This document shows, piece after piece, positions 1,563 through 35,863 of a stretch of DNA of 35,863 nt. The position numbers were made by a program, and so were the translations under genes. The notes under the pieces were generated by a model. It was not told where the DNA came from and searched no databases. It saw nothing but the letters and a program-made list of their open reading frames with translations. The stretch's first letter is position 1. The number at the start of each line of letters is the position of its first letter. Source of the DNA: a virus; IMG/VR virus record IMGVR_UViG_3300025874_000001, positions 1-35,863 of that record; one strand, 5' to 3'.

Positions 1563-2324
1563 TTACATTCTCAAGAGCCAGTAAAGCTCAGCGCATTTCT
1601 TTGCTACCTTGATACCCTTGTCAAGCTCCTTGTCATTCCAGACCTTGTGGTGGTGCTTCTTGGTATCGCAGTCAATGATTACGGAGATACAGCCTGGCAG
1701 GTAGTCCAGCTTGCGCTCCTTCATTAGCATATAAGCTTCGATGCCGAGCTGCTGGCAGTCCTTGTCATAGCACTTAGCCTTGCCCTTGGTATTTGTACGG
1801 CACTTGTAGTCCGCTAGGAATAGCTTATCGTCGCTGTCGTAGCCAATGAAGTCCACGCTGCCAGCGATCTTGATTCGACTGCTTGCAATGATGTGCTCAC
1901 AGGATACAGGCTTTACGCCCTCCTCGTGAACCCAATCCACAAACGGCATAGCCCATTCATTCCAGACGCTGTCATCCGGCGCACTACCCTCGGCGAGGTA
2001 GTTATGATTAATGAAGTCCTCGATTACCTTGTGGACTGTCGTACCGAACTCCGAGGACTCAATAGTTTCACCCGTAGCCGGATGCTCCCTTGTGCCATAG
2101 GTAAGACGCTCTAACTCCTGCCAAGCTAGGCTAGGGTATGCCCTCGCTAGTTGCGCCATCATACGGGGCTTATAGATGCTATCAAGGAACGCATCCTTTA
2201 CGATGCCAAGCACAGTCGTAACAGAAGGATACACCTTCGCTACTTTCCGCGCTTGTGCGGGTGTCATTATGTCGGCCTCGAACTCAGGGTTCAGGACATC
2301 GTTGCAATTATAGAAGTGGCTCAT
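1563..2324 (-). CDS. PD-(D/E)XK (RecB/Cas4/YqaJ-like) exonuclease
   Basis: GSVDFIGYD ... LADYKCR gives a D ... D/E-x-K core. It is followed by a QhxxY-like motif (CQQLGIEAYML). The same genome encodes an ERF annealing protein. Confidence 0.6.
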   Translation of the reverse strand: MSHFYNCNDVLNPEFEADIMTPAQARKVAKVYPSVTTVLGIVKDAFLDSIYKPRMMAQLARAYPSLAWQELERLTYGTREHPATGETIESSEFGTTVHKVIEDFINHNYLAEGSAPDDSVWNEWAMPFVDWVHEEGVKPVSCEHIIASSRIKIAGSVDFIGYDSDDKLFLADYKCRTNTKGKAKCYDKDCQQLGIEAYMLMKERKLDYLPGCISVIIDCDTKKHHHKVWNDKELDKGIKVAKKCAELYWLLRM

Positions 2325-2509: not shown

Positions 2510-2775
2510 TACAGCTCCTCTTGGTCCATAATGAACTCCACACCTTCGCGGAGGATGTCGATGCGCTGCTCTGATTCCGCAAAGTAACGGCCAGCGTACA
2601 GCTCAATATTCTCTTGGTCAATAATGATTAGAGTATCCTGTCCGAGTGTGCTTTGGTCGGATTCCGGTATCATTGCACCTACCCAAATGAAACGCAGTTG
2701 CTCCTCCGCGATGAAGTGCAGGAGGTCATCGGAACTGCGGCGTAATGTTTCTAGTTCTGTTTTTTCTGTATCCAT
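2509..2775 (-). CDS. Hypothetical acidic protein (88 aa from the first ATG)
   Basis: The track ORF starts at TTG 2799. The first ATG is at 2773-2775 (MDTEKTELETL...), 10 nt after the upstream stop. Confidence 0.5.
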   Translation of the reverse strand: MDTEKTELETLRRSSDDLLHFIAEEQLRFIWVGAMIPESDQSTLGQDTLIIIDQENIELYAGRYFAESEQRIDILREGVEFIMDQEEL

Positions 2776-2785
2776 TGTATTGTCT

Positions 2786-2929
2786 TTAGAATTTAGCAAT
2801 GAGGGTGGCGACCAGTAGCATAATGCTGCCGCCTAGACAGCAGGCCAGCACCACACAGGCGGAGTAAAAGACCTTCTCGCCGCCTTTGACGAGATGATCG
2901 AGGTTAGTATTTTCTTTACGGTTTTTCAT
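2786..2929 (-). CDS. Small C-terminally anchored membrane protein (47 aa)
   Basis: Internal ATG at 2927-2929 gives MKNRKENTNLDHLVKGGEKVFYSACVVLACCLGGSIMLLVATLIAKF, with one hydrophobic helix. The longer track ORF would run into the operator-like intergenic region. Confidence 0.4.
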   Translation of the reverse strand: MKNRKENTNLDHLVKGGEKVFYSACVVLACCLGGSIMLLVATLIAKF

Positions 2930-3052
2930 TTTTATTGCGTTCTTATCGGTGTTTAGGTATATCAAGGCTTGACATACTTTTTGATGTGATGTGTACCTTA
3001 AGACAGTCAGCCCTTGGTAGTCAATCATTAATTAATATAAAAAAGGGAGTCA

Positions 3053-3082
3053 ATGACTGACAGTCATATGACTGACAGCCAT
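3053..3082. promoter_or_regulatory. Tandem 15-bp palindromic operator-like sites
   Basis: ATGACTGACAGTCAT (3053-3067) is a perfect palindrome. It is immediately followed by ATGACTGACAGCCAT (3068-3082). A related GACAGTCAG lies at 3002-3010. The sites sit in the 160-bp gap between two minus-strand genes. Confidence 0.5.
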
Positions 3083-3091
3083 ATGGTGGGC

Positions 3092-3367
3092 TTAGATTAG
3101 GTCCAGGGTCTCCTGAAAGATGGTCGCCCTGTCATCGTGGCTAAGTGACTCAATCGGTAGCTCACGGGGTGTCTCGCTGTCAGTCCAGTAGACTAGTTTC
3201 ACGATCTCGAACCCGTCAAGGTCGCGCTCCTCCCAAGCTTCTGTGACTTGGGACTCCCCGGCTTCGCTGCTGCTCTCGCAATGAGTTGTCACGGCCTCCG
3301 CTTCGACTGTTATGTCAAAGTATTTGTTGGGCCGTAGCTCGATGCCTTCTAGTTGTATAGTTTTCAT
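3092..3367 (-). CDS. Hypothetical acidic protein (91 aa), N-terminus MKTIQLEGIE
   Basis: ATG at 3365-3367. The first 10 codons are repeated at 4207-4235. Confidence 0.55.
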   Translation of the reverse strand: MKTIQLEGIELRPNKYFDITVEAEAVTTHCESSSEAGESQVTEAWEERDLDGFEIVKLVYWTDSETPRELPIESLSHDDRATIFQETLDLI

Positions 3368-3399
3368 TATGCGAATGTGATTTGGTTTTTATCTTTTGG

Positions 3400-4065
3400 C
3401 TACTGGCAGGTAAAGTCCGAGAGGTAGTCAGTTGACGCAATAGCCTTCTGCCGCGCCCACATTTCGAGTCCTTTGGCCTGCCAGTAGCCGCGGTTCCAGC
3501 CTGTGCCATCGCACGATTCAATGCCCATCGCCTCTAGCTCGTAGAGTTTCTCCGGCGAATTGCAGCGCAGCACGTGAACCCTAGGAAAGGCCCTTGCCCA
3601 CATCTCTACTGTCTGCCACTTCCATTCTGTCGTGCCGCCAATGGCAATAACTTCGGGACGCGGAAATAATGAGCGCACGTCGTCGCGTGTCATACCATCC
3701 TGTACGGCCACCGCCAAGGGTATGCCGCAGGACTGGATGATCGGCGCGTAGGTGCTCCACTGCTCGATGGTGGCAGCTCCGTCACCAATGACGTCGGGGA
3801 CGATGGCCCATCGCGCTTGTGTCTTTTGGGACTGCGACCAAACGAGCAAACGCCTCCACTCATCTTCTTTTTTCGCCCACTTGTCGTGGTCAAAGCAGTT
3901 AGCTCGCATATCCCAACAGCTAAACGCCCCATTATCGAGTGCGTACGGAAACCAGGGCCAAGGGCCGCGCTGCGCCCCCGGTGAAAACAAATGGCCGATG
4001 CGCCCAGTCTCACGACCAAGGCAATGCCAGAACCATCCAGTAGAGTTTGCAGGCATTACCAGCAT
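3400..4065 (-). CDS. Putative TGT-fold / DpdA-like DNA (deaza)guanine transglycosylase
   Basis: Alternating strand/loop motifs: YALDNGAFSCWD, WAIVPDVIGD, LAVAVQDG, VIAIGGTTEWK, RVHVLRCNSPEKL and ESCDGTGW. These resemble the DSGAFS ... PDv.gd ... iGG ... HlLG ... DS.DS.W pattern of phage DpdA / tRNA-guanine transglycosylase barrels as I recall them. Not verified by search. Confidence 0.4.
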   Translation of the reverse strand: MLVMPANSTGWFWHCLGRETGRIGHLFSPGAQRGPWPWFPYALDNGAFSCWDMRANCFDHDKWAKKEDEWRRLLVWSQSQKTQARWAIVPDVIGDGAATIEQWSTYAPIIQSCGIPLAVAVQDGMTRDDVRSLFPRPEVIAIGGTTEWKWQTVEMWARAFPRVHVLRCNSPEKLYELEAMGIESCDGTGWNRGYWQAKGLEMWARQKAIASTDYLSDFTCQ

Positions 4066-4235
4066 CGTATTGGCCTTTCTAAGCGACCCTCACGGATCAG
4101 TGCTAGCATTAATACTTCAGCCTCGTAAAGGGTATACATTCCCTCATCAATCATAAATGCCTCGACGTGGTCAAGCCACTCAGCGCGTGATAATCCCGGC
4201 ACAGTTTCGATGCCTTCTAGTTGTATTGTTTGCAT
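4056..4235 (-). CDS. Hypothetical protein (59 aa), N-terminus MQTIQLEGIE
   Basis: Hand-translated because it is below the track cut-off. ATG at 4233-4235 and TAA at 4056-4058. It overlaps the start of the DpdA-like gene by 10 nt. Confidence 0.45.
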   Translation of the reverse strand: MQTIQLEGIETVPGLSRAEWLDHVEAFMIDEGMYTLYEAEVLMLALIREGRLERPIRCW

Positions 4236-4236
4236 A

Positions 4237-4392
4237 TTAATCAGCGTTTAATTGTTCAAGTGTCCGGCATCCTGTCCGTACGAACAGAATATCTAGGTAA
4301 GTTTCCTCGCTGTTGCCATTGATTGACGTAACAAGGGAAATTTCCTCTTCGGTTGCTATGTTCATTTCTAGTAGTGTTTCGTATGTGTCCAT
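4237..4392 (-). CDS. Hypothetical acidic protein (51 aa)
   Basis: Hand-translated as MDTYETLLEMNIATEEEISLVTSINGNSEETYLDILFVRTGCRTLEQLNAD. It is preceded by AAGAAAGGAAAACA (SD-like) and ends 1 nt before the next start. Confidence 0.45.
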   Translation of the reverse strand: MDTYETLLEMNIATEEEISLVTSINGNSEETYLDILFVRTGCRTLEQLNAD

Positions 4393-4411
4393 TGTTTTCC
4401 TTTCTTATGTG

Positions 4412-4696
4412 TTATCTGTTTACCCAAGTTTCCCAATCACAAAGCATATCCGCCGGAGCGCATTCTGTGAATATAATAAACCTATCGAGTAGCTCCAAAG
4501 GAGCTTCCGTGTCAAGGGTTTGCTTGAACTTCAAGCGTATAGGTTTGAGCCAGCGTTCGTGAACCAGTAGCGAATTCCAATCGCAAGCGGGTAAAAGCCT
4601 TTTGAAAAGCTCCCATTCCGGCTTTGGTTCTACTAGATCATCCCAAGCTTTCAGCCTATCCTGAGAGAATGTTTTTAATGCAGTTTCTATTTTCAT
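4412..4696 (-). CDS. Hypothetical protein (94 aa)
   Basis: ATG at 4694-4696, preceded by the same 20-nt leader as the next gene (AAGAAAGGAAAAAA). Confidence 0.55.
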   Translation of the reverse strand: MKIETALKTFSQDRLKAWDDLVEPKPEWELFKRLLPACDWNSLLVHERWLKPIRLKFKQTLDTEAPLELLDRFIIFTECAPADMLCDWETWVNR

Positions 4697-4720
4697 TTTT
4701 TTCCTTTCTTATGTGTTAAA

Positions 4721-4739
4721 GCTTAATCTTCGATTAAGC
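4721..4739. promoter_or_regulatory. Perfect 8-bp stem / 3-nt loop hairpin
   Basis: GCTTAATC-ttc-GATTAAGC. It lies directly upstream (on the minus strand) of the conserved 20-nt leader of gene 4412-4696. Confidence 0.4.
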
Positions 4740-4830
4740 GCGATATGCAGCGGGCTTTTCCCGTGCCTCAATTACTGTTAAAGTCCCTTGTTTACTACGT
4801 GTCAAATATATTTTTAAAATATTTTCCCCT

Positions 4831-4875
4831 TGCTTCCCTAGCTTGCCTTCCCTGGCTCGCCTTCCCTGGCTCGCC
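4831..4875. repeat. Tandem 14-bp CT-rich repeats (about 3 copies)
   Basis: GCCTTCCCTGGCTC occurs at 4845-4858 and 4859-4872. A degenerate copy, GCTTCCCTAGCTT, lies just upstream. The repeats sit within a 300-bp non-coding island. Confidence 0.8.
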
Positions 4876-5043
4876 GGCGTCTTTCCTTAGTCATTACCCT
4901 TGCCACAAATCAAAAGGCCTTGTGTGGCCTTATAGCCGGTAAACCTTGTGCATTGGCGGGGTTTTCGGCGTGCCTTGCTTATGACTAGGCACAAAAAAAG
5001 CGCACGCTTTCACGTACACCGATTTGCTTTGTTTTTATGAGTG

Positions 5044-5259
5044 CTAGTCAATGCAAGATACTTTAGAAGCGTCAAAAGGCATTCGGTTTTTTTGTATCAA
5101 TTGACGGGCAAAGGATAAAGCACGAGGCCAACTTTCCGTTTTATAATCCTTTACAAAAGTCTTTCGCACTTTTCCGGCACGGTAAAACGTGTAAGGCGAA
5201 CAATTAGATTCGGAATGTTTAGTTGGAATGCCTTCGAGAATTTCAATCTTTAGTTTCAT
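5044..5259 (-). CDS. Hypothetical basic protein (71 aa), N-terminus MKLKIEILEGIP
   Basis: ATG at 5257-5259. Its N-terminus is related to the M(K/Q)TIQLEGIE starts at 3367 and 4235. Confidence 0.5.
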   Translation of the reverse strand: MKLKIEILEGIPTKHSESNCSPYTFYRAGKVRKTFVKDYKTESWPRALSFARQLIQKNRMPFDASKVSCID

Positions 5260-5305
5260 AATAAAAAGCGGTTTTACAGAACCGCAAACTGATTTGAGTT
5301 AGGTT

Positions 5306-6199
5306 TTACGCTTCGATCTGTGCAATGATTTGTTTCAATTCAGCAAGTGAGAGAATGAAGTTTTCCTTTATGCCTGCCGCTAGGTTTTCGGTTTGCTTGG
5401 CTTTTAATATGCCATATTTGCCCGCTTTATCCAAGAAGCGCAAATCAGTCGTATCCATAGAGAAGCAATCAACTAGGTTGCAAGCTTGCTCAAATTCATC
5501 GGAGCGCACCGGAAAGGCAATTGCTTGTCTGCGTGCTTGTGCTTGTTTATAGTGCTTTAAGCGCGCTTTATTTGCTTGGCTATAACTGAACGTTAAGTGA
5601 TAGTTAGGCAAAGGCACACGTTCAGGGTTTTTCGTATAATCGTAAAACTGCACCTTTGGAAAGCTTTGGTAGATCTCATAAAAGTCCAAGTCGCTTGTGC
5701 CATTCAAACGAACTGCAAACTTGTGGCCTTTCCTTTCCGCCCGTGCGCTTGCCAGTCGAATTTCGTGCTTTAACACGTCGCTTGCAATGTCTTTCCGATA
5801 TACTGTGAGCCAAGTTTTAACGATTCTAGAAACGTCAATCACGTGCTTTCCGGCCCGCTTTTCAATGAGCGAGTGCCCGCTGCCAACTAGGCAAGCCAAA
5901 CGGCAGCCAGTGCTTGCAAATGAGCAAATATCTTTGCCCGCGTTTTTACCAGCTGAAAGGTAAAGGATAAGCGTTTGAAAGTTTTCCTTTTTACCCTTTT
6001 CAACCTTCTGAGACGAATCCACAGAAGCAAAGTAGCTAATGCCTAATTCTTTAAAGAGCTTGCCCTTTGTGGTGTACGTTAACGCTTCAAAGTACTTTTC
6101 AGCTTTTAACAGAATACCAAACTTCTTTGCGGGCATTGGTTCAAGTAAATAGGCAAGTGCTAATTTCTTGATCTTTGATAGTGCTTTTTTGTTTTTCAT
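5306..6199 (-). CDS. GP88-family-like protein (297 aa), function unknown
   Basis: The combination CSFASTGCRLACLVGSG ... VRLNGTSDLDF ... VQFYDYTKNP matches my recollection of the Pfam GP88 phage family. It is the first gene of the leftward block. By eye it is more AT-rich than neighbouring genes. Confidence 0.4.
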   Translation of the reverse strand: MKNKKALSKIKKLALAYLLEPMPAKKFGILLKAEKYFEALTYTTKGKLFKELGISYFASVDSSQKVEKGKKENFQTLILYLSAGKNAGKDICSFASTGCRLACLVGSGHSLIEKRAGKHVIDVSRIVKTWLTVYRKDIASDVLKHEIRLASARAERKGHKFAVRLNGTSDLDFYEIYQSFPKVQFYDYTKNPERVPLPNYHLTFSYSQANKARLKHYKQAQARRQAIAFPVRSDEFEQACNLVDCFSMDTTDLRFLDKAGKYGILKAKQTENLAAGIKENFILSLAELKQIIAQIEA

Positions 6200-6338
6200 T
6201 TATTAAAGGCGGTTTTACAGTTCCGCGAACTGGTTATGTGTTAAGAGTGAGACGCTATCAATGCGGGTAAATAAAAGGTTGTCAAGTATATATTTCAAAT
6301 ACTTTTACCCGTCAAAGCCTACCACTATATGCAAAGCA

Positions 6339-6395
6339 ATAGCCGGGTGAATGATAGCCGGGTGAATGACGATCTTAATAATAGCCGGGTGAATG
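6339..6395. repeat. Iteron set 1: three direct copies of ATAGCCGGGTGAATG
   Basis: Exact 15-mers at 6339-6353, 6354-6368 and 6381-6395. Confidence 0.9.
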
Positions 6396-6466
6396 CATCC
6401 CATCATCCCAAAAGAAATAACAAGCTCACGCACGAAAGCGGGCCGTCAATATCCACCTGGTAACCA

Positions 6467-6536
6467 GTGAACAGCAGTGCAGTAGTGAACAGCAGTGCAG
6501 TAGTGAACGGATGGACAGTAGTGAACGTTTGAACAG
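6467..6536. repeat. Iteron set 2: 18-bp tandem repeats with core CAGTAGTGAAC
   Basis: GTGAACAGCAGTGCAGTA occurs twice, at 6467-6484 and 6485-6502. Then come GTGAACGGATGGACAGTA and a partial GTGAACGTTTGAACAG. The core repeats at 6480, 6498 and 6516, an 18-bp period. It is followed by GGGGGGGTGGGGG (6536-6548) and a TA tract (6571-6587). Confidence 0.9.
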
Positions 6537-9891: not shown

Positions 9892-10265
9892 TGCCAAAGA
9901 CAAGATTAAGTAAAATTGCAGAAGAACAAGAGGTTGAGTTCGATGAAGCTCTTAGAATCGCAACCGAAAAACTGCCAGAGGGTTCGGTTACTGGAACGGG
10001 ACGAAATACTTGGGTAACTGAAGAGGGTGCAAAAATCCTTGAGGATTCCTTTATGATTGAGGAGATTATCCCTAAGCACTTCACCGGAACCGTCATATCA
10101 GAATGCCCTAACCCGAAGTACAATGTTGTCTTCAGCAAAGAAATAGGGAAAAGAGTCAATGTGTTACTTCCTCGTAAGTGGCAGGGTAAGCTTATTAAAA
10201 AGATAATTATCTTTGAGGCTATTGAGGATTCAAAGGGAGTAAGCTATCGCTATGTCGGAAAGTAA
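9891..10265 (+). CDS. Hypothetical protein (124 aa)
   Basis: TAATG overlap with terL. No motif recognised. Confidence 0.55.
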   Translation: MPKTRLSKIAEEQEVEFDEALRIATEKLPEGSVTGTGRNTWVTEEGAKILEDSFMIEEIIPKHFTGTVISECPNPKYNVVFSKEIGKRVNVLLPRKWQGKLIKKIIIFEAIEDSKGVSYRYVGK

Positions 10266-10470
10266 GAATATAACTTTAGACAGGGATTGGTGCAGGGAGC
10301 AGTCCGACCGATTCGCTAGTTGGGAAATACTTCGCAGGTATGTGCTGCACGAAAGTGGAGTATCAATGACAAATGGTGACCTATGTGATACAATAGGCGT
10401 ATCATCGACTTACACTATCCGTTTGCTTAAATCTATACAAAAACGCCTCGCCGAACAAAATGCTAAATGA
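10252..10470 (+). CDS. Hypothetical protein with a possible HTH (72 aa)
   Basis: DLCDTIGVSSTYTIRLLKSIQKRL is HTH-like. It overlaps both neighbours. Confidence 0.45.
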   Translation: MSESKNITLDRDWCREQSDRFASWEILRRYVLHESGVSMTNGDLCDTIGVSSTYTIRLLKSIQKRLAEQNAK

Positions 10471-13064: not shown

Positions 13065-13283
13065 ATGAATATACAAGATGACATCAATAGCTTGCATAGC
13101 TATGAATCCTTTGCTCGGTTTATTAAGATGGTTCACGAACTCCGTGAAGAAGCTATCAGCGAGATGCACGAATCCTCAAGCGAGACTATCCAGCAGATTT
13201 CTGGTCGAATCATTACATATGATCAGATCCTACAAATCTCCGGCTGGGATAAGCTTCGATTAAAGCATTCGGATCGAATGTAA
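13065..13283 (+). CDS. Hypothetical protein (72 aa)
   Basis: ATG at 13065, 2 nt after the lysozyme stop. Confidence 0.5.
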   Translation: MNIQDDINSLHSYESFARFIKMVHELREEAISEMHESSSETIQQISGRIITYDQILQISGWDKLRLKHSDRM

Positions 13284-13324
13284 CCCATATGTTATAATGC
13301 GCTCATCGCCCTCGCTCGGCGTTA

Positions 13325-14425
13325 ATGAGTGGTAACAATATGACAGACGAAATCGAAACTGCTAACGCTGAAGCAGACAAAAATTCAGTGGACAACAATA
13401 ATATATCCGTCGAGGATTTCGCAATGCGGAGACTTGGGGAACTTAATCCTGCGGCTGAAGAGCCACAAGAGGAAGTAACCGAAGAAACCGAGGAGCCGGA
13501 AACTGATGAAGTAACTGAGGAGGCAACTGAAGAGTCAGTTGAGTCCGAGGAAGCTACTGAGGAGACCGAGGAATCCGATGATGTTCTTTCACAGTTAGAC
13601 TTGGACGATATGTCCGAGGAGGACCTAAGGGAACTGGCTGACAAGCTAGGTAGCCGTGCTGTAGCTCGATTCGGTGAATTGACTGCTAAGCGCAAAGCTG
13701 CCGAAGAACGTCTAGCTAGTTTAGAAGCTGAACTTAAAAAAGCTCCGAACCCACTTGATACAAAAAAGAAAGTCGAAAACAATCCTTTTAGTAATCTTGA
13801 TACAATTGAAAAATTGCAAGAGAAAGCTGTTGAGGTTGACGACATTGTTGAGTGGGCTGAGGATGTTCTTTTTCAGAGTGACGGCTATTCCGCAGATGAA
13901 GTAGTAACCGAGGTAGAAGGAAAGGACCTGACAAAGGCCGACGTACGAAGAGCTTTACTACAAGCACGTAAAGCACAGAAGACATTCCTTCCTGATCAAT
14001 TGAATAACCTTCAATCGATTGAGCAAAGCACTCAAATGCAAGAGCACCTAAGTGCTCAGGCTGAAGCTGAGCTACCCTGGATGAAAGGTGAAGATAACGA
14101 CACACGTCGTCAATACGAAGCCATTATGAGCGACCCACGGGTTGATACATTAATGACCAATCTTCCCCCTGATGTTAAAGCTCAAATGCCATATTTACTA
14201 GCACACGCTGCTAATAGTATTTATGGACGAAAGCCAGTAGCAAATACTAAATCATCAGTGAAATTAAATCCCCCAAGAACAGGTACACCCTCCTCGTCCA
14301 AACCAGAAAAGTCTATGGGAAAAACAGCCAAGGCTCTAAAAGAATTAGAGGCTCGGTTCAAAGAGACGGGTAGCGCAAACGATTTCGCCAACCTAAGAAA
14401 ACTTAAAATGGCAAACCGCCACTAA
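13325..14425 (+). CDS. Scaffolding protein
   Basis: It lies directly upstream of the capsid gene. It has an extremely acidic, repetitive N-terminal region (EEPQEEVTEETEEPETDEVTEEATEESVESEEATEETEESDD) followed by charged helical segments. Confidence 0.6.
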   Translation: MSGNNMTDEIETANAEADKNSVDNNNISVEDFAMRRLGELNPAAEEPQEEVTEETEEPETDEVTEEATEESVESEEATEETEESDDVLSQLDLDDMSEEDLRELADKLGSRAVARFGELTAKRKAAEERLASLEAELKKAPNPLDTKKKVENNPFSNLDTIEKLQEKAVEVDDIVEWAEDVLFQSDGYSADEVVTEVEGKDLTKADVRRALLQARKAQKTFLPDQLNNLQSIEQSTQMQEHLSAQAEAELPWMKGEDNDTRRQYEAIMSDPRVDTLMTNLPPDVKAQMPYLLAHAANSIYGRKPVANTKSSVKLNPPRTGTPSSSKPEKSMGKTAKALKELEARFKETGSANDFANLRKLKMANRH

Positions 14426-22947: not shown

Positions 22948-23670
22948 ATGGCGGATATTACAATTACTCCAACGGGTGCAGCATTTGACCCAACAGATAC
23001 CGTAACTTCAACTCGGCTCAATGAAGCCCGTAACCCTACGGCTGCCTTGACTACTGGTTCTATTGTACCAACTGATTTGAGCACTGGTGCTCCAAGTTGG
23101 GACGGTAGTGGAACTCTCAACGTTATTGGAAGTCTAGCTTCTGGCTCTATTTTTACAAGTAACGAAGCGATAGAAATTAATCAAAGTGGTACTGGCGACC
23201 GCAATGCATATGTAGATTTTCATACTGCTGACCCTAGCGGTACTGATTTCAATGCTAGAATTTATCGTGCTGGTGGTTTAGATAGCGACTTGGAAATATT
23301 AAACTCTGGAACAGGAAGCATTGTTGTTAATTCTACAGTTGCCCAAGTTAGTAACAATGCTCAATCCGTTGCTACTAAGGCTTATGTTGATAGTGTGGTT
23401 GCTCCAAGCACTTATACAGGAGGAGAAAGTGTAACGTTTCCTAATGGTTTGATTATGAAGATGGGATCTACTAGTAGTAAGACACTTGATTTCGGTACTC
23501 CTTTTCCAGGGGGTGTCGTAAGTGTCACTATCTCCAATCAAAGTAGTTACGGCGATACTTACGGAAATGCATCATTTGTGACCAGCTCTAGTCCTAGTCA
23601 ATTTACAATTAGCTCGGGAGTAAGTGTGAGCGGCAATGGACCTTGGTTCTGGCAAGCAATCGGATACTAA
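22948..23670 (+). CDS. Tail fibre protein 1 (240 aa)
   Basis: A KAYVD collar motif is followed by FPNGLIMKMGS and a C-terminal WFWQAIGY. The C-terminal domain is paralogous to that of the next gene. Confidence 0.65.
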   Translation: MADITITPTGAAFDPTDTVTSTRLNEARNPTAALTTGSIVPTDLSTGAPSWDGSGTLNVIGSLASGSIFTSNEAIEINQSGTGDRNAYVDFHTADPSGTDFNARIYRAGGLDSDLEILNSGTGSIVVNSTVAQVSNNAQSVATKAYVDSVVAPSTYTGGESVTFPNGLIMKMGSTSSKTLDFGTPFPGGVVSVTISNQSSYGDTYGNASFVTSSSPSQFTISSGVSVSGNGPWFWQAIGY

Positions 23671-23707
23671 TGAACCCCATCCTCCAATCAGTACAACAAT
23701 TTAAATT

Positions 23708-24340
23708 ATGGCCATTATAAATAAAGGAACAGCTTTCTCCAACGGGGAACAACTATCAGCAAGCAAGCTTAATGATTTAGTAGACGGAGCTACCTTTGGT
23801 ACTGACTCCGTTGATAACGCTAGTACAATCGTAAACGCCAACGGAGCTATTACGGTTCGTGACAGCGGTGTTACCGCTGCTAAACTAGCTACGGGTTCTG
23901 TTACTACAAATAAGATCGTAGACGCTAATGTTACTTTTGCTAAGCTTACCGATGTCATTGACGATGACACAATGGATACAGCTACCAATACGACCTTGGC
24001 TACTTCGGAAAGCATTAAGGCTTATGTTAATGGAACATCGGATTTATCTACCAATGGTTATCAAATTTTTCCAAGTGGATTAATTATGCAGTGGGGAACA
24101 TATAATACTGCAGGAACTCCTGCTGGTAATGTGACTATTGATTTTCCAATTCATTTTACAACAGCTTGTTTAAATCTTTCCGCAACACTAAGACAACCAC
24201 TTGGGAGTGCTGATGGAGCAAACACTGTGTCCGCAGAATTGGACGACTCTTTGCCACTTGAAAAATTCACGCTTGGATTTGATGAACACGACGTTCCAGC
24301 AGGCGATAAATATGCGTGGTGGCAAGCAATCGGATACTAA
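23708..24340 (+). CDS. Tail fibre protein 2 (210 aa)
   Basis: A KAYVN collar motif is followed by FPSGLIMQWGT and a C-terminal AWWQAIGY. The N-terminus has repeated (D/T)xxV(T/D)xxK(L/I) segments typical of fibre shafts. Confidence 0.65.
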   Translation: MAIINKGTAFSNGEQLSASKLNDLVDGATFGTDSVDNASTIVNANGAITVRDSGVTAAKLATGSVTTNKIVDANVTFAKLTDVIDDDTMDTATNTTLATSESIKAYVNGTSDLSTNGYQIFPSGLIMQWGTYNTAGTPAGNVTIDFPIHFTTACLNLSATLRQPLGSADGANTVSAELDDSLPLEKFTLGFDEHDVPAGDKYAWWQAIGY

Positions 24341-24822
24341 TGAACCCTCTCCTTCAATCAGTACAACTAGCGTTGCAAAACGCTACGCAAAAGGAAGCCC
24401 TTGTCTACATCGACAAGGTAGTGGACTTCTGTATTGAAAAGGAGAACGGTAAGGTACTGGACGGATGGCCCCGTGACTTAATACAACTACTTGTATCCTA
24501 CCATATGGCTAAGGATACCTTTATTGCAGAGCAGGACGCAGAGGGTAATATCTTAGGGGTCTTTATGTGGTATAATTGCGACGAGGAAGACGACTGGTTC
24601 TTTGTTCAGAACTGGGAGTCGGACAAGGAAGACGGCAATGCAATCTTTATGGCCTTCCTATTTGCGGAGGATAATCAAACTTTTAAGAAACTTACACATA
24701 ACTTCATTACTCAATGCCCTGAGGTTATGCAGAAAAAACTACTAGGCATACGATACAGGCAAGGTGCTCCCACTAAAGTGGTATACAGCACTGCATTATT
24801 CAACAAAATCTTAGGAATATAA
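24340..24822 (+). CDS. Hypothetical protein (160 aa from ATG 24340)
   Basis: The track ORF begins at 24316 inside the fibre gene. ATG 24340 (MNPLLQSVQ...) overlaps the fibre stop as TAATG. It is also the start that is duplicated as a relic at 23670. Confidence 0.5.
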   Translation: MNPLLQSVQLALQNATQKEALVYIDKVVDFCIEKENGKVLDGWPRDLIQLLVSYHMAKDTFIAEQDAEGNILGVFMWYNCDEEDDWFFVQNWESDKEDGNAIFMAFLFAEDNQTFKKLTHNFITQCPEVMQKKLLGIRYRQGAPTKVVYSTALFNKILGI

Positions 24823-30893: not shown

Positions 30894-31622
30894 CTATGGG
30901 TTCTTATAATTGATAAGTAAATCTTTTAGGTTACGCTTCTCATCCTGTAGTTCCTTACGCTGCTCAATCATACGATCAATGCGGTAGGATAGAAGCCGGG
31001 ATTCCTGCCGAATCATATCGATCTGAGTCTGGATTCTTTCGATGTTTTCTTCGGTGTCTTGCATACTCTGAACTTGTGCGGAAGCCTCCTCCTTGTCAAC
31101 AAATAACTCGGGAAAATTTAACCCTTCTAATGGATAATTTAACGCCTCGTAGCAGAAGGTATCACGGGCGATAGCGGCCTCCTTCTCGTCATCAAAGTAG
31201 CCCAGTTCGTACCGCCTCCTGCTCTTGCCTTTACCTACATCAATTGTAACGCGGCATTTTTTCTTGCCAGCTGGCCAGCGCACCCCCCGATACTTAGAAT
31301 TACCTGTTATCTTTCGTGATCCCCTAAGATTCTGAGAGTGTGTGACATACCGCAAGTTGGATGGTGCATTATTTGAACTATCTCCATTGATATGATCAAT
31401 GTCGTAGTTGTCCGGTCTAGGTCCAAGGAAGGCTCTTGCGATTAATCCGTGAACGCTAAGGACTTTCAATCCTACGCCCAAGCTCCGATACCCCTTTCCA
31501 TCATCATAGCCGAATGATCTTCCTCGACTGGAACGTCCGTGCCTCTCTACACTTCCGTCCGAGTAACAGGTTACTCTTATTCCGTTTACGCTTATATCCT
31601 TTGATGTTTCTGTAGCTATCAT
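30894..31622 (-). CDS. HNH homing endonuclease with an AP2 DNA-binding domain
   Basis: DHINGDSSNNAPSNLRYVTHSQN is an HNH motif. YRGVRW ... CRVTIDV ... YELGYFDDEKEAAIARD is AP2-like. The C-terminal tail is coiled-coil. Confidence 0.8.
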   Translation of the reverse strand: MIATETSKDISVNGIRVTCYSDGSVERHGRSSRGRSFGYDDGKGYRSLGVGLKVLSVHGLIARAFLGPRPDNYDIDHINGDSSNNAPSNLRYVTHSQNLRGSRKITGNSKYRGVRWPAGKKKCRVTIDVGKGKSRRRYELGYFDDEKEAAIARDTFCYEALNYPLEGLNFPELFVDKEEASAQVQSMQDTEENIERIQTQIDMIRQESRLLSYRIDRMIEQRKELQDEKRNLKDLLINYKNP

Positions 31623-34486: not shown

Positions 34487-34963
34487 TTAGAATCCTTGTG
34501 ATTGTTTAGTTGTAGGTTTAGGCAATTTGCTGCCGTGGTCATTAGTAGCGTCCGGATCTTTGGTATCGTCAATAGCAAAGAGTCCATTAAGTGCATATTT
34601 TCTGGCGTAGGATGAGGCACTGCCAGTAATCTGGGCATCGTCCATACCTTTCTTTGTCTCCGCCTCACGAGCGTAGGCATTAACGTGAATCGAGCTATCA
34701 CTGCTATCATCTGTGGATGCAATAACGGCGGTTGACTTGACGTATACCCGGCCACCGACCTCAACCATTTCATCGGTGATTACTAAGGTGCAGGACCACT
34801 CAGCCAGCAATGGCTTGACGGATGTAAGGATGTCCTCAGCGGAACGGTAGCGGTAACCACCGAACTTATTAGTCTGTCCCTTCGGTGCTTTCAAAGAGGA
34901 CTGAATCCCCTGGAGTTTCTTATGTATGTTCATCGTGATTAATTTGGTTTTGTTATTACTCAT
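34487..34963 (-). CDS. erf: ERF-family single-strand annealing protein
   Basis: KFGGYRYRSAEDILTSVKPLL ... ITGSASSYARKYALNGLFAIDD is characteristic of the ERF superfamily. Confidence 0.75.
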   Translation of the reverse strand: MSNNKTKLITMNIHKKLQGIQSSLKAPKGQTNKFGGYRYRSAEDILTSVKPLLAEWSCTLVITDEMVEVGGRVYVKSTAVIASTDDSSDSSIHVNAYAREAETKKGMDDAQITGSASSYARKYALNGLFAIDDTKDPDATNDHGSKLPKPTTKQSQGF

Positions 34964-35402
34964 ATGTTTTTTTGGTTAGTTTACGGAACAGCTCTTTACG
35001 CTGCTTTTGATTTTTACAGGAATCAAGATCACCTTCACTTGCTCCTAGGTCTTTTAACTCTGTGACTTGTTCAGAGGCTGTCAAGGAATTTCCGAACTTT
35101 CTTGTAAGTTGCGTAAGTCCTACGGGATGAAGGACATCGGTCATCTCCTGCTCCAAGTAAGCGGCCATTGCCTCTAAAGTATTTGGCAAATCTTCCTTAT
35201 TACCCTTGCACATCTTGAGGAAAAAGTTCTCAACCTTTCCGAGAAGACTGTTGGCCTGGCGAGAGATTACACCGCGGACCATTCCGGTCTGGTGGTCGTG
35301 ATCCAGCACCCAGTCCTGCGTCTTAATGTCCAAGATGGGACAGGAGATTGGCTTGTTAGCCTCCCGGAACTCCTTGATTTGGTTCTGTGATAAGTAAGTC
35401 AT
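34956..35402 (-). CDS. Endonuclease VII-like (HNH-fold) junction resolvase, cysteine-poor variant
   Basis: VLDHDHQTGMVRGVISRQANSLLGKVEN aligns with T4 endo VII HLDHDH...GKVRGLLCNLCNAAEG. Only one of the four zinc-ligand cysteines is retained. Confidence 0.65.
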   Translation of the reverse strand: MTYLSQNQIKEFREANKPISCPILDIKTQDWVLDHDHQTGMVRGVISRQANSLLGKVENFFLKMCKGNKEDLPNTLEAMAAYLEQEMTDVLHPVGLTQLTRKFGNSLTASEQVTELKDLGASEGDLDSCKNQKQRKELFRKLTKKTYE

Positions 35403-35662: not shown

Positions 35663-35863
35663 TATTACTCTCCGTTAAGGATGAAAAAGGACGCAGACTT
35701 GCGGATGATCTTGATGGCTTCAGTAGGGGAGATGCAGTAGTCCCGAATCATATCGTCAACCTCAATGCAGAGGGAAGCTAGAGTGAAGAAGTCGAGATGC
35801 CGATCGGATTTAACGTGCGTGATGGTGACGCAGGGATGGTCTTGACCAAATGTTGGCTCCTCG
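35663..35863. repeat. Terminal overlap, copy B (duplicate of 1-201, containing a truncated second copy of CDS 3-239)
   Basis: Base-for-base identity with 1-201. The minus-strand ORF here is cut by the window edge. Confidence 0.95.

Follow-up and report, generated by a model that had tools for sequence, protein, structure and literature searches.

How does an accessory gene come to lie exactly in front of a resident phage gene, headed by a copy of that gene's own first codons? The question is raised by a complete phage genome of ~35.66 kb contained in the window, by which we mean the whole stretch of 35,863 nucleotides (nt) that was analyzed (IMG/VR virus record IMGVR_UViG_3300025874_000001; positions 1-201 recur at 35663-35863). 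Directly in front of a resident early gene for a 91-amino-acid (aa) protein, the window carries a cassette of 839 bp (3368-4206) that holds the body of a 59-aa gene and a gene whose product resembles DpdA and the tRNA-guanine transglycosylases (TGT), and copies of the first 29 nt of the 91-aa gene flank this cassette on both sides. Alignment with related contigs shows the cassette to be present in some and absent from others of otherwise colinear phage genomes, and the breakpoints to fall within the repeat. We consider it probable that the locus reflects modular shuffling by homologous recombination at this short duplicated gene start, the Erf-like protein and exonuclease of the phage being the probable agents.

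The duplicated gene start and its empty sites

The two copies of the repeat, at 3339-3367 and 4207-4235, were identical at 27 of 29 positions, including an exact core of 20 nt, and each opens with a minus-strand ATG. The left (upstream) copy (4207..4235, minus strand) makes up the first 29 nt, from the ATG to codon 10, of a chimeric 59-aa open reading frame (ORF; 4056-4235) that begins MQTIQLEGIE. The right (downstream) copy (3339..3367, minus strand) is the start of the resident 91-aa ORF (3092-3367), which begins MKTIQLEGIE. The edges of the likeness were sharp: on the minus strand, the two loci agreed at 7/30 positions before the ATG, at 27/29 in the repeat and at 6/30 after it, and BLASTP likeness between the 59-aa and 91-aa proteins was limited to residues 1-14. 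Between the copies there were just the remainder of the 59-aa ORF and a 221-aa ORF (3400-4065). A first-pass annotation of the window had described both a 29-bp direct repeat lying on minus-strand start codons and a content of only the 59-aa ORF and a TGT/DpdA-like gene between its copies, and the alignment and the ORF list agree with it on both points.

When the 20-mer core was searched with up to 3 mismatches on both strands of the 35.9 kb, only these two sites were found, the chance expectation being 0.01. A third copy, which had been claimed at 5228-5238 at the head of a 71-aa gene beginning MKLKIEILEGIP, did not stand above chance. It is an 11-mer with one mismatch, and a search of this kind gave 3 matches in the window, 2 of them being the real copies, with 0.72 expected by chance. 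The repeat is not a general regulatory motif present at many genes either, as the first-pass annotation had considered, since the genome holds two copies only. It might nevertheless be proposed that the shared 29 nt are a site at which a translational repressor or a small RNA co-regulates both genes. The repeat does span the translation starts of two genes in one operon, and in one lineage, described below, a variant specific to that lineage is present in both copies, as if by concerted evolution. However, in addition to the low copy number, no likeness was seen ahead of the start codon, the expected place of a ribosome-binding operator, and a scan of the whole window gave no Rfam match and hence no RNA family. 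Furthermore, the repeated sequence is wholly different between lineages and is always the start of the gene behind the insert, so that we give the operator explanation very little credence.

An exact search of viral contigs with the 20-nt core returned one contig with two copies (L001/L007; 93-99% identical to the window) and five with one copy. In L002, L005/L057, L046 and L049, the left flank of the window, namely the 3' end of a 51-aa gene (4237..4392, minus strand; ...AATTAAACGCTGATTAAT), runs directly into a single ATG, and a full-length 91-aa gene lies behind that ATG in each of them. Compared with the window, these empty contigs were 98-100% identical over the left flank and 90-97% identical over the first two thirds of the 91-aa gene. 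Filled and empty sites were also compared in pairs: L063 and L005 had an identity of 99.5% on the left side and of 95-97% on the right side, and further pairs of a similar kind were L069 vs. L053 and L067 vs. L002.

The 91-aa gene was found in 15 viral contigs, 13 without the cassette and 2 with it. A second copy of the start was present in exactly the two cassette-bearing contigs, and nothing within 8 mismatches of the 29 nt was found in the other 13, so that presence of the repeat tracked the cassette in 15/15 viral contigs. A metagenome scan with the 59-aa protein gave further filled sites (L061-L069 and L072). Both copies were present in every filled contig that reached far enough, and at least nine contigs carry the block of 59-aa body and DpdA-like gene. 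The first-pass annotation had proposed that the unit entered by recombination at a gene start and duplicated the start of the recipient gene, and it had named an empty site in relatives as the check and relatives that all carry both copies as the contrary outcome. Empty sites were indeed found: 13 of the 15 contigs had one start copy and no insert, four of them with the exact left flank of the window. The proposal is supported by these sites and by the lineage-matched left copy described below, with the exception of its direction; gain and loss in any given genome are indistinguishable because recombination at the repeat runs both ways.

The empty sites also bear on simple paralogy, according to which the 59-aa and 91-aa proteins would keep an old N-terminal motif by protein selection, the DNA repeat being irrelevant to mobility. 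Other leaders in the 59-aa family end in ...L(Q/K)DIE followed by T, resembling ...LEGIE, and the start of the 71-aa gene (MKLKIEILEGIP) could be taken in the same sense. On the other hand, the likeness breaks off at nt 29, 6/8 synonymous positions in the repeat, as read from the sequence, are identical, and no second copy is found wherever the cassette is missing. The same architecture also occurs with four unrelated repeats and with other cargo, and in one such locus (L022) the duplicated start heads a mere mini-ORF of 15 codons. Paralogy is already largely refuted by the empty sites, and we regard it as very improbable.

Joints of the cassette and its cargo

The cassette was found behind three different left flanks. 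The first is the 51-aa-gene flank, which is filled in the window, L062-L065, L067 and L068 and empty in L002/L005/L046/L049. The second contains a sequence of the ribosome-binding-site (RBS) type (...AGGATAAAAACATAA) and is filled in L066 and empty in L045, and the third is a hairpin (GCCCCGAAAGGGGC...), filled in L008/L069/L072 and empty in L053/L054. In all three contexts, the variant bases of the left copy agreed with the flank-matched empty genome. Specifically, the left copy of the window (4207..4235) is identical to the lone gene-start copy of L005, the left copy of L066 (AAA ACC ATA CAA TTA) is exactly that of L045, and the left copy of L008 reads GAA ACT ATA GAA CTA as in L053, followed by the cassette-type GAA GCC ATC GAA. 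Codon 10 was GAA in all left copies examined and GAG in all right copies and QLEGIE-type empty sites; it was GAA in the empty sites of the L053-L056 lineage. The right copy (ATGAAAACTATACAACTAGAAGGCATCGAG) was common to the window and L062-L066, irrespective of the left flank. Comparison of the contexts shows that the left copy always has the variant bases of the local lineage, and a lineage-type 5' part followed by a cassette-type 3' part is the pattern expected if crossovers fall in the repeat.

The limits of the cassette are also seen in an unrelated phage context, that of L009, where homology spans exactly 4206..3368, from one repeat to the other. The body of the 59-aa gene, the first cargo gene (4056..4206, minus strand; from TVPGLSR), has a stop codon that overlaps the start of the DpdA-like gene, and the same body occurs elsewhere with other leaders, namely MERQIGVPTP (L009), MNKLEYLQDIE (L070), MHKLKDIE (L071) and MYESITEETTTPT (L073), indicating that the leader seen in the window was borrowed from the 91-aa gene. 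By these alignments the left copy (4207..4235) is the duplicated start of the resident 91-aa gene, and the common 'IE' codons suggest a microhomology joint. At the other end, an apparent 32-nt spacer (3368..3399, minus strand) is the remnant 3' tail of the DpdA-like ORF and reads PKDKNQITFA. The ancestral TAA stop of this ORF overlaps the ATG of the 91-aa gene (TAATG), as seen in the alignment to homologues and at the junctions of L008, L063, L066, L067 and L068, and genes abut or overlap on both sides of the cassette. No promoter-like or terminator-like site was found flanking the cassette ends on the gene strand or overlapping the repeat; the one promoter-like consensus match on the gene strand (3693-3666) lies inside the DpdA-like ORF. 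Terminal inverted repeats of the cassette were not found.

These data bear on an explanation by loss only, in which the cassette and both copies would be ancestral and the 13 cassette-free genomes would be independent deletions between the repeats, with no insertion or transfer. Direct repeats promote deletion, and the L005 copy (ATGCAAACA...ATCGAG) is the exact hybrid expected from a crossover between the two copies of the window. In addition, two diverged cassette alleles, that of L067/L068 and that of the window, occupy the same site, suggesting long residence. However, one cassette lies behind three unrelated left flanks with a left copy that matches each local lineage, the 59-aa body occurs with other leaders in other genomes, and the composition of the DpdA-like gene is foreign to the window and to L008 and not to other phage groups. 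L002, in which ATGAAAACT follows right after the left flank, would furthermore need a crossover within 3 nt. Loss as the only process is therefore unlikely in our judgment.

The resident 91-aa gene (3092..3367, minus strand), the target of the duplication, is itself a mosaic. Its last third (window 3092-3192) was only 55-75% identical to the closest empty genomes (L002, L005, L046 and L049 compared), and the corresponding part of the protein is like the allele found in the L008 lineage (KLVYWTDSETP.ELP...), a more distant one. Because of this mosaicism, a double crossover could not be told from circle integration when filled genomes were compared with empty ones in the right copy and in the body of the resident gene. 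The 91-aa protein is acidic (22 D/E, 7 K/R), its AlphaFold2 (AF2) model was unusable (predicted local distance difference test, pLDDT, 42), and neither it nor the 59-aa protein matched a family in any library searched, including Pfam, PHROG and NCBIfam.

The second cargo gene, the DpdA-like gene (3400..4065, minus strand; 221 aa), had been noted for its raised G+C content, and a sliding window bore this out. Its G+C content of 57.5% is the maximum over all 666-nt windows of the genome (mean 46.1%, standard deviation 3.3%), and its G+C at third codon positions is 0.66 vs. 0.40-0.43 in the neighboring 51-aa and 94-aa genes. DpdA-like homologues in other phage groups have a G+C content equal to that of their surroundings, so that the excess in the window and in L008 marks foreign origin rather than amino-acid composition. 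Homologues of the protein have 231-235 aa and end in ...DKNQITFA; in the window, an in-frame TAG (3398-3402) ends the ORF 11 codons ahead of the usual stop of the family. An independent TGA is present in L064 two codons before the position of this TAG, and L063, L066-L068 and L008 are full length. The window TAG and the L064 TGA are hence two separate truncations of one tail, whose conserved residues PKDKNQITFA can still be read from the 30 nt that follow the window TAG. Note that a tRNA scan of the whole window gave nothing, including no suppressor tRNA able to read the TAG.

The AF2 model of the DpdA-like protein had a pLDDT of 92.5, and the top 50 Foldseek matches in PDB were all tRNA-guanine transglycosylases (E = 1.6e-5 to 1.7e-4, probability 1.00), with a TM-score over the query of only 0.51-0.58; a TGT-type (beta/alpha)8 barrel is present according to this model. 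BFVD matches of the model include phage proteins named queuine tRNA-ribosyltransferase. In tblastn, 36% identity (E = 3e-14) was found to mycobacteriophage genes annotated 'DpdA-like tRNA-guanine transglycosylase', and PHROG gave phrog_15826 (1e-27) and phrog_887 (TGT; 1.5e-3). The family comprises ~2,270 unnamed proteins, in which D44 (LDNGAF), D91 (IVPDV) and D186 (SCDGTGW) are invariant; by reading, these motifs resemble TGT motifs. On these grounds the label 'DpdA-like' appears reasonable at the level of the fold and not as membership of the characterized DpdA subfamilies. The gene probably serves DNA modification and appears to be a freely exchanged accessory in its phage group. As a separate observation, the DpdA-like match in Escherichia phage phiG7 (L121, record 13244-13836) is split over the hypothetical ORFs phiG7_20 and phiG7_21, and this phage also has a separate annotated 7-deazaguanosine-inserting enzyme. 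The split region may be a second, disrupted TGT-fold gene.

Recurrence and mechanism

Across the loci compared, the architecture is a recurrent one, with at least four unrelated repeat sequences and with other cargo. In L073-L080, a 54-aa relative of the 59-aa gene and a DpdA-like gene are followed by a 182-aa gene, and MYESI starts both the small gene and the 182-aa gene (17 nt identical). In a large group with ~59% DpdA identity, a 131-aa gene (MTQRKNI joined to YLCG...) and a DpdA-like gene are followed by a 61-69-aa gene starting MTQRKNI, the repeat being 20-25 nt long. Among 39 loci with the 61-69-aa gene, a second start copy (up to 1 mismatch) was present in 6/6 with an upstream DpdA gene. 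Of the loci without DpdA, 31/33 had no second copy, and the other two bracket a different cargo of 294 aa. In L022, the mini-ORF mentioned above, which is all that the duplicated start heads there, overlaps the DpdA start. L014 has a homologous upstream gene (...IYLCGPING...) and a DpdA-like gene, and the leader MKSKRGGKRKGAG is the start of a downstream gene.

The same architecture was also found with another gene and another cargo that has no relation to DpdA. In L007 (~10020-10310), compared with window 34944-34981, an insert of 264 bp lies exactly at the start of erf (34963), the window being the empty site. The insert holds an 83-aa ORF beginning with the first six codons of erf (MSNNKT) and is bracketed by a 26-nt repeat (AAAACATATGAGTAATAACAAAACCA). 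Separately, the start of the 61-69-aa gene (MTQRKNI...) was observed to be an insertion hotspot in an unrelated phage group (L081-L119, L116/L118 and L022), where the inserts were DpdA alone, the YLCG-motif 131-aa gene with DpdA, or the 294-aa protein, each with a duplicated start. The 294-aa protein looks PAPS-reductase-like by its SLGAGVQSS motif.

The upstream copy supplies the start codon and the first ten codons of the first cargo gene, and the downstream copy keeps the resident gene whole. If the locus is shaped by recombination at the duplicated start, as we prefer to think, the cassette would move in and out by homologous recombination across the duplicated start and across longer homology in and beyond the resident gene, and the exchange would take place between co-infecting genomes or via an excised circle with one repeat copy. 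Catalysis would probably be provided by the phage's own proteins. The window encodes an Erf-like single-strand annealing protein (34487..34963, minus strand; phrog_155, E = 1.4e-44), a candidate recombinase for short repeats, and a PD-(D/E)XK exonuclease (1563..2324, minus strand; PF12705, E = 2.3e-7; phrog_298, E = 1e-17), which is likely the partner of Erf; an endonuclease VII is also encoded. More speculatively, the first duplication might have come from an in-frame microhomology junction (ATC GA / ATT GA, the 'IE' codons), and it might have been kept since the cargo gains the resident translation start while the resident gene is restored. A 7-deazaguanine base made by the host and inserted by the cargo might shield the DNA of the phage from restriction.

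Several points weigh against this reading. The evidence is all comparative and comes from metagenome assemblies, a stretch of 20-29 nt is short by the standards of homologous recombination, and the reading does not account for how the duplication was made. The right-hand crossover cannot be placed because of the low identity (55-75%) of the 3' third of the 91-aa gene. One variant specific to the MERKNI lineage (L020/L093) is present in both of its copies; this is not what a single crossover would give, and either gene conversion or a separate origin has to be invoked. Nor is the architecture universal, since a duplicated start was absent around the distant DpdA-like genes of three cultured phages (Phegasus, phiG7 and vB_EliS_R6L). 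As for the cargo, the DpdA-like gene of the window is truncated by the TAG. Its protein gave no match at E <= 0.1 in Pfam (including PF01702 and DUF6610) or NCBIfam and no relevant chain in PDB, either as a single sequence or as a profile (three single-sequence matches with E of 0.4-0.9 were unrelated). The identification hence rests on the fold and on distant annotated homologues, because Pfam, NCBIfam and PDB gave no useful match. Finally, none of the FolE, QueD, QueE and QueC Pfam families was found in any scanned ORF of the window, and without these preQ0 synthesis genes a supply of preQ0 by the host would be required.

Mobility encoded by an element was also considered, in which a transposase, integrase or homing endonuclease would have made the repeat, either as a target-site duplication or as an attachment core. 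The insert is discrete and flanked by direct repeats, and an HNH endonuclease is encoded at 30894-31622. However, the cassette has neither a recombinase or nuclease nor terminal inverted repeats, and no integrase or transposase was seen among the scanned ORFs of the window. Target-site duplications of transposons are typically 2-14 bp, and the duplications found here, at 17-36 nt, are longer. The duplicated sequence also differs by lineage and always begins at a start codon, and the two copies in the window differ at 2/29 positions. We judge this explanation to be exceedingly improbable. The transposon or integrase model was rejected on account of the missing inverted repeats and recombinase and the lineage-specific duplicated sequence. 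Site-specific integration, of the att or integron-like type, was likewise rejected; it implies a fixed core and a linked integrase, and the sequence here changes by lineage and equals the local gene start.

Recombination at the duplicated start, as we favor it for this locus, might be extended to a general 'start-capture' route for phage accessory genes, of which duplicated first codons (5-13) would be a regular signature and whose cargo, in the cases seen here, would mostly serve DNA modification or anti-restriction. We advance this generalization only tentatively and hold it to be rather doubtful. In start-capture, an existing translation start would serve the cargo by fusion or coupling, and the resident gene would be rebuilt just behind the cargo. 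The duplicated start would then be a recombination handle of the cargo's own, by which it could pass between relatives, possibly in the form of small circles. If true, start-capture would be an expression-and-exchange platform, integron-like without an integrase.

Genome setting and comparison with known systems

Two units next to the cassette are also bracketed by repeats. The 94-aa gene (4412-4696) lies in a unit at 4390..4718 (minus strand) with a 25-nt repeat at 4390-4414 and 4694-4718 (minus strand TAACACATAAGAAAGGAAAAnnATG), which consists of a stop codon, an RBS and an ATG; L005 has a single 25-nt copy and lacks 4415-4693 with the 94-aa gene. A GP88-family gene (5306-6199, PF17338) lies in a unit at 5261..6235 (minus strand) with a 34-nt terminator-like hairpin repeat at 5261-5294 and 6202-6235. 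The closest relative, L007, has kept one hairpin and lacks the GP88 gene. Since these two neighboring units have the same repeat-bracketed indel pattern, positions 3.0-6.3 kb behave as a hyperplastic region, as in T4-type phages (PMC2839356, PMC4122927). Other observations were made on these units: L046 and L049 have a different sequence in the slot of the 94-aa gene, variants of the 25-nt RBS motif precede the 91-aa gene or the cassette in L047, L052 and L066, and L006 has three hairpin copies ~390 nt apart.

The phage group of the window is marine and podovirus-like. The minus strand carries early genes at ~0.2-6.2 kb and 30.9-35.4 kb, and the plus strand carries the structural genes, which include an SU10-type capsid protein, lysozyme and tail fibers. 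No cultured relative was matched when window 2700-5300 was compared by blastn with 50,697 phage records. Two further sets of repeats were observed in the genome. Between the divergent early and structural blocks, window 6335-6526 contains short tandem or near-tandem repeats, AGTGAACAGCAGTGCAGT (18-nt period) and AATGATAGCCGGGTGAATG, which may be an origin or regulatory region. A 48-nt repeat with 94% identity (23650-23697 / 24320-24367) lies at the 3' ends of adjacent tail-fiber paralogues (22948-23670 and 23708-24340), each of which has a Gp53-like C-terminal domain.

The locus bears on an old open question, the origin of the sharp mosaic joints at phage gene boundaries, for which homologous recombination at short linkers and random illegitimate joining plus selection have been opposed. 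It offers natural before/after pairs with flanks that are 95-99.5% identical, breakpoints resolved within 29 nt and one cargo behind three flanks. These pairs, together with at least four independent recurrences, make the question testable. The cassette is a clean natural example of gain and loss of a phage accessory gene, and for annotators it provides a rule: two nearby genes that are alike only in their first codons can mark an insertion.

Among known systems, the moron (Hendrix), as usually defined, is an accessory gene between phage genes that brings its own promoter and terminator. The cassette is likewise an extra gene block of atypical G+C between genes that are adjacent in relatives. 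Unlike a moron, it has no flanking promoter or terminator of its own and is fused in frame to the resident translation start, with translational coupling on both sides. Membership of a transposon or insertion sequence was rejected, as there were no transposase match and no terminal inverted repeats and the duplication is 29 nt and imperfect.

The cargo gene shares a TGT-like barrel fold with phage DpdA (Hutinet et al. 2019, PMC6884629; Cui et al. 2023, PMC10516641) and is distantly homologous to mycobacteriophage and Arthrobacter phage genes that carry the annotation DpdA-like. A lone modification gene without a synthesis pathway, as seen here, has been reported for some viruses (PMC6884629, PMC10516641). 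The gene differs from known DpdA in that it has no PF01702 or DUF6610 match, is short (221-235 aa), is accompanied by no Que or FolE gene that could be found and, in the window copy, is truncated by the TAG. DNA modification by its family of ~2,270 proteins is predicted, in contrast to that by characterized DpdA.

With regard to the mode of exchange, T4-type phages are known for excision and insertion mediated by PeSLs (promoter-early stem-loops; Arbiol et al. 2010, PMC2839356; Comeau et al. 2014, PMC4122927). In both systems, short direct repeats enclose small non-essential genes of a hyperplastic early region, and close relatives differ by the precise presence or absence of a unit, with one hybrid repeat at the empty site. 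The reversible excision via a circle with one repeat that has been proposed for PeSLs is a further likeness. A PeSL is a regulatory cassette of ~100 bp that lies between genes and comprises a promoter, a stem-loop, a Shine-Dalgarno sequence and a start codon; it occurs at many sites, so that any module can pair with any other. In contrast, the repeat of the cassette is 29 nt of coding sequence of one specific gene, in two copies and with no promoter or hairpin, and it gives the cargo a chimeric N-terminus. The 94-aa and GP88 units of the window, with their RBS-type repeat and terminator-like hairpin, are nearer to PeSLs than the cassette repeat is.

Phage mosaicism is promoted by Rad52-like recombinases, to which Erf belongs and which are efficient at recombining diverged sequences (De Paepe et al. 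2014, PMC3945230). The locus resembles the boundary or linker sequences of modular theory combined with such relaxed recombination (PMC3945230), as the places of exchange are short homologous patches where genes meet, the phage encodes a single-strand annealing protein (Erf-like in this case) together with an exonuclease, and traces of homology are found at the borders of the exchanged blocks. That work dealt with temperate lambdoid phages and longer diverged homologies, and the homology used here differs from a linker common to many genes in being the target gene's own duplicated first codons. Nothing specific on start-codon-proximal duplications flanking phage gene insertions was found in the open-access full-text literature. 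By this analysis, the closest known mechanism is PeSL or boundary-sequence shuffling, from which the locus appears to differ in that the handle is the coding start of one gene and serves, at the same time, as the translation start of the cargo.

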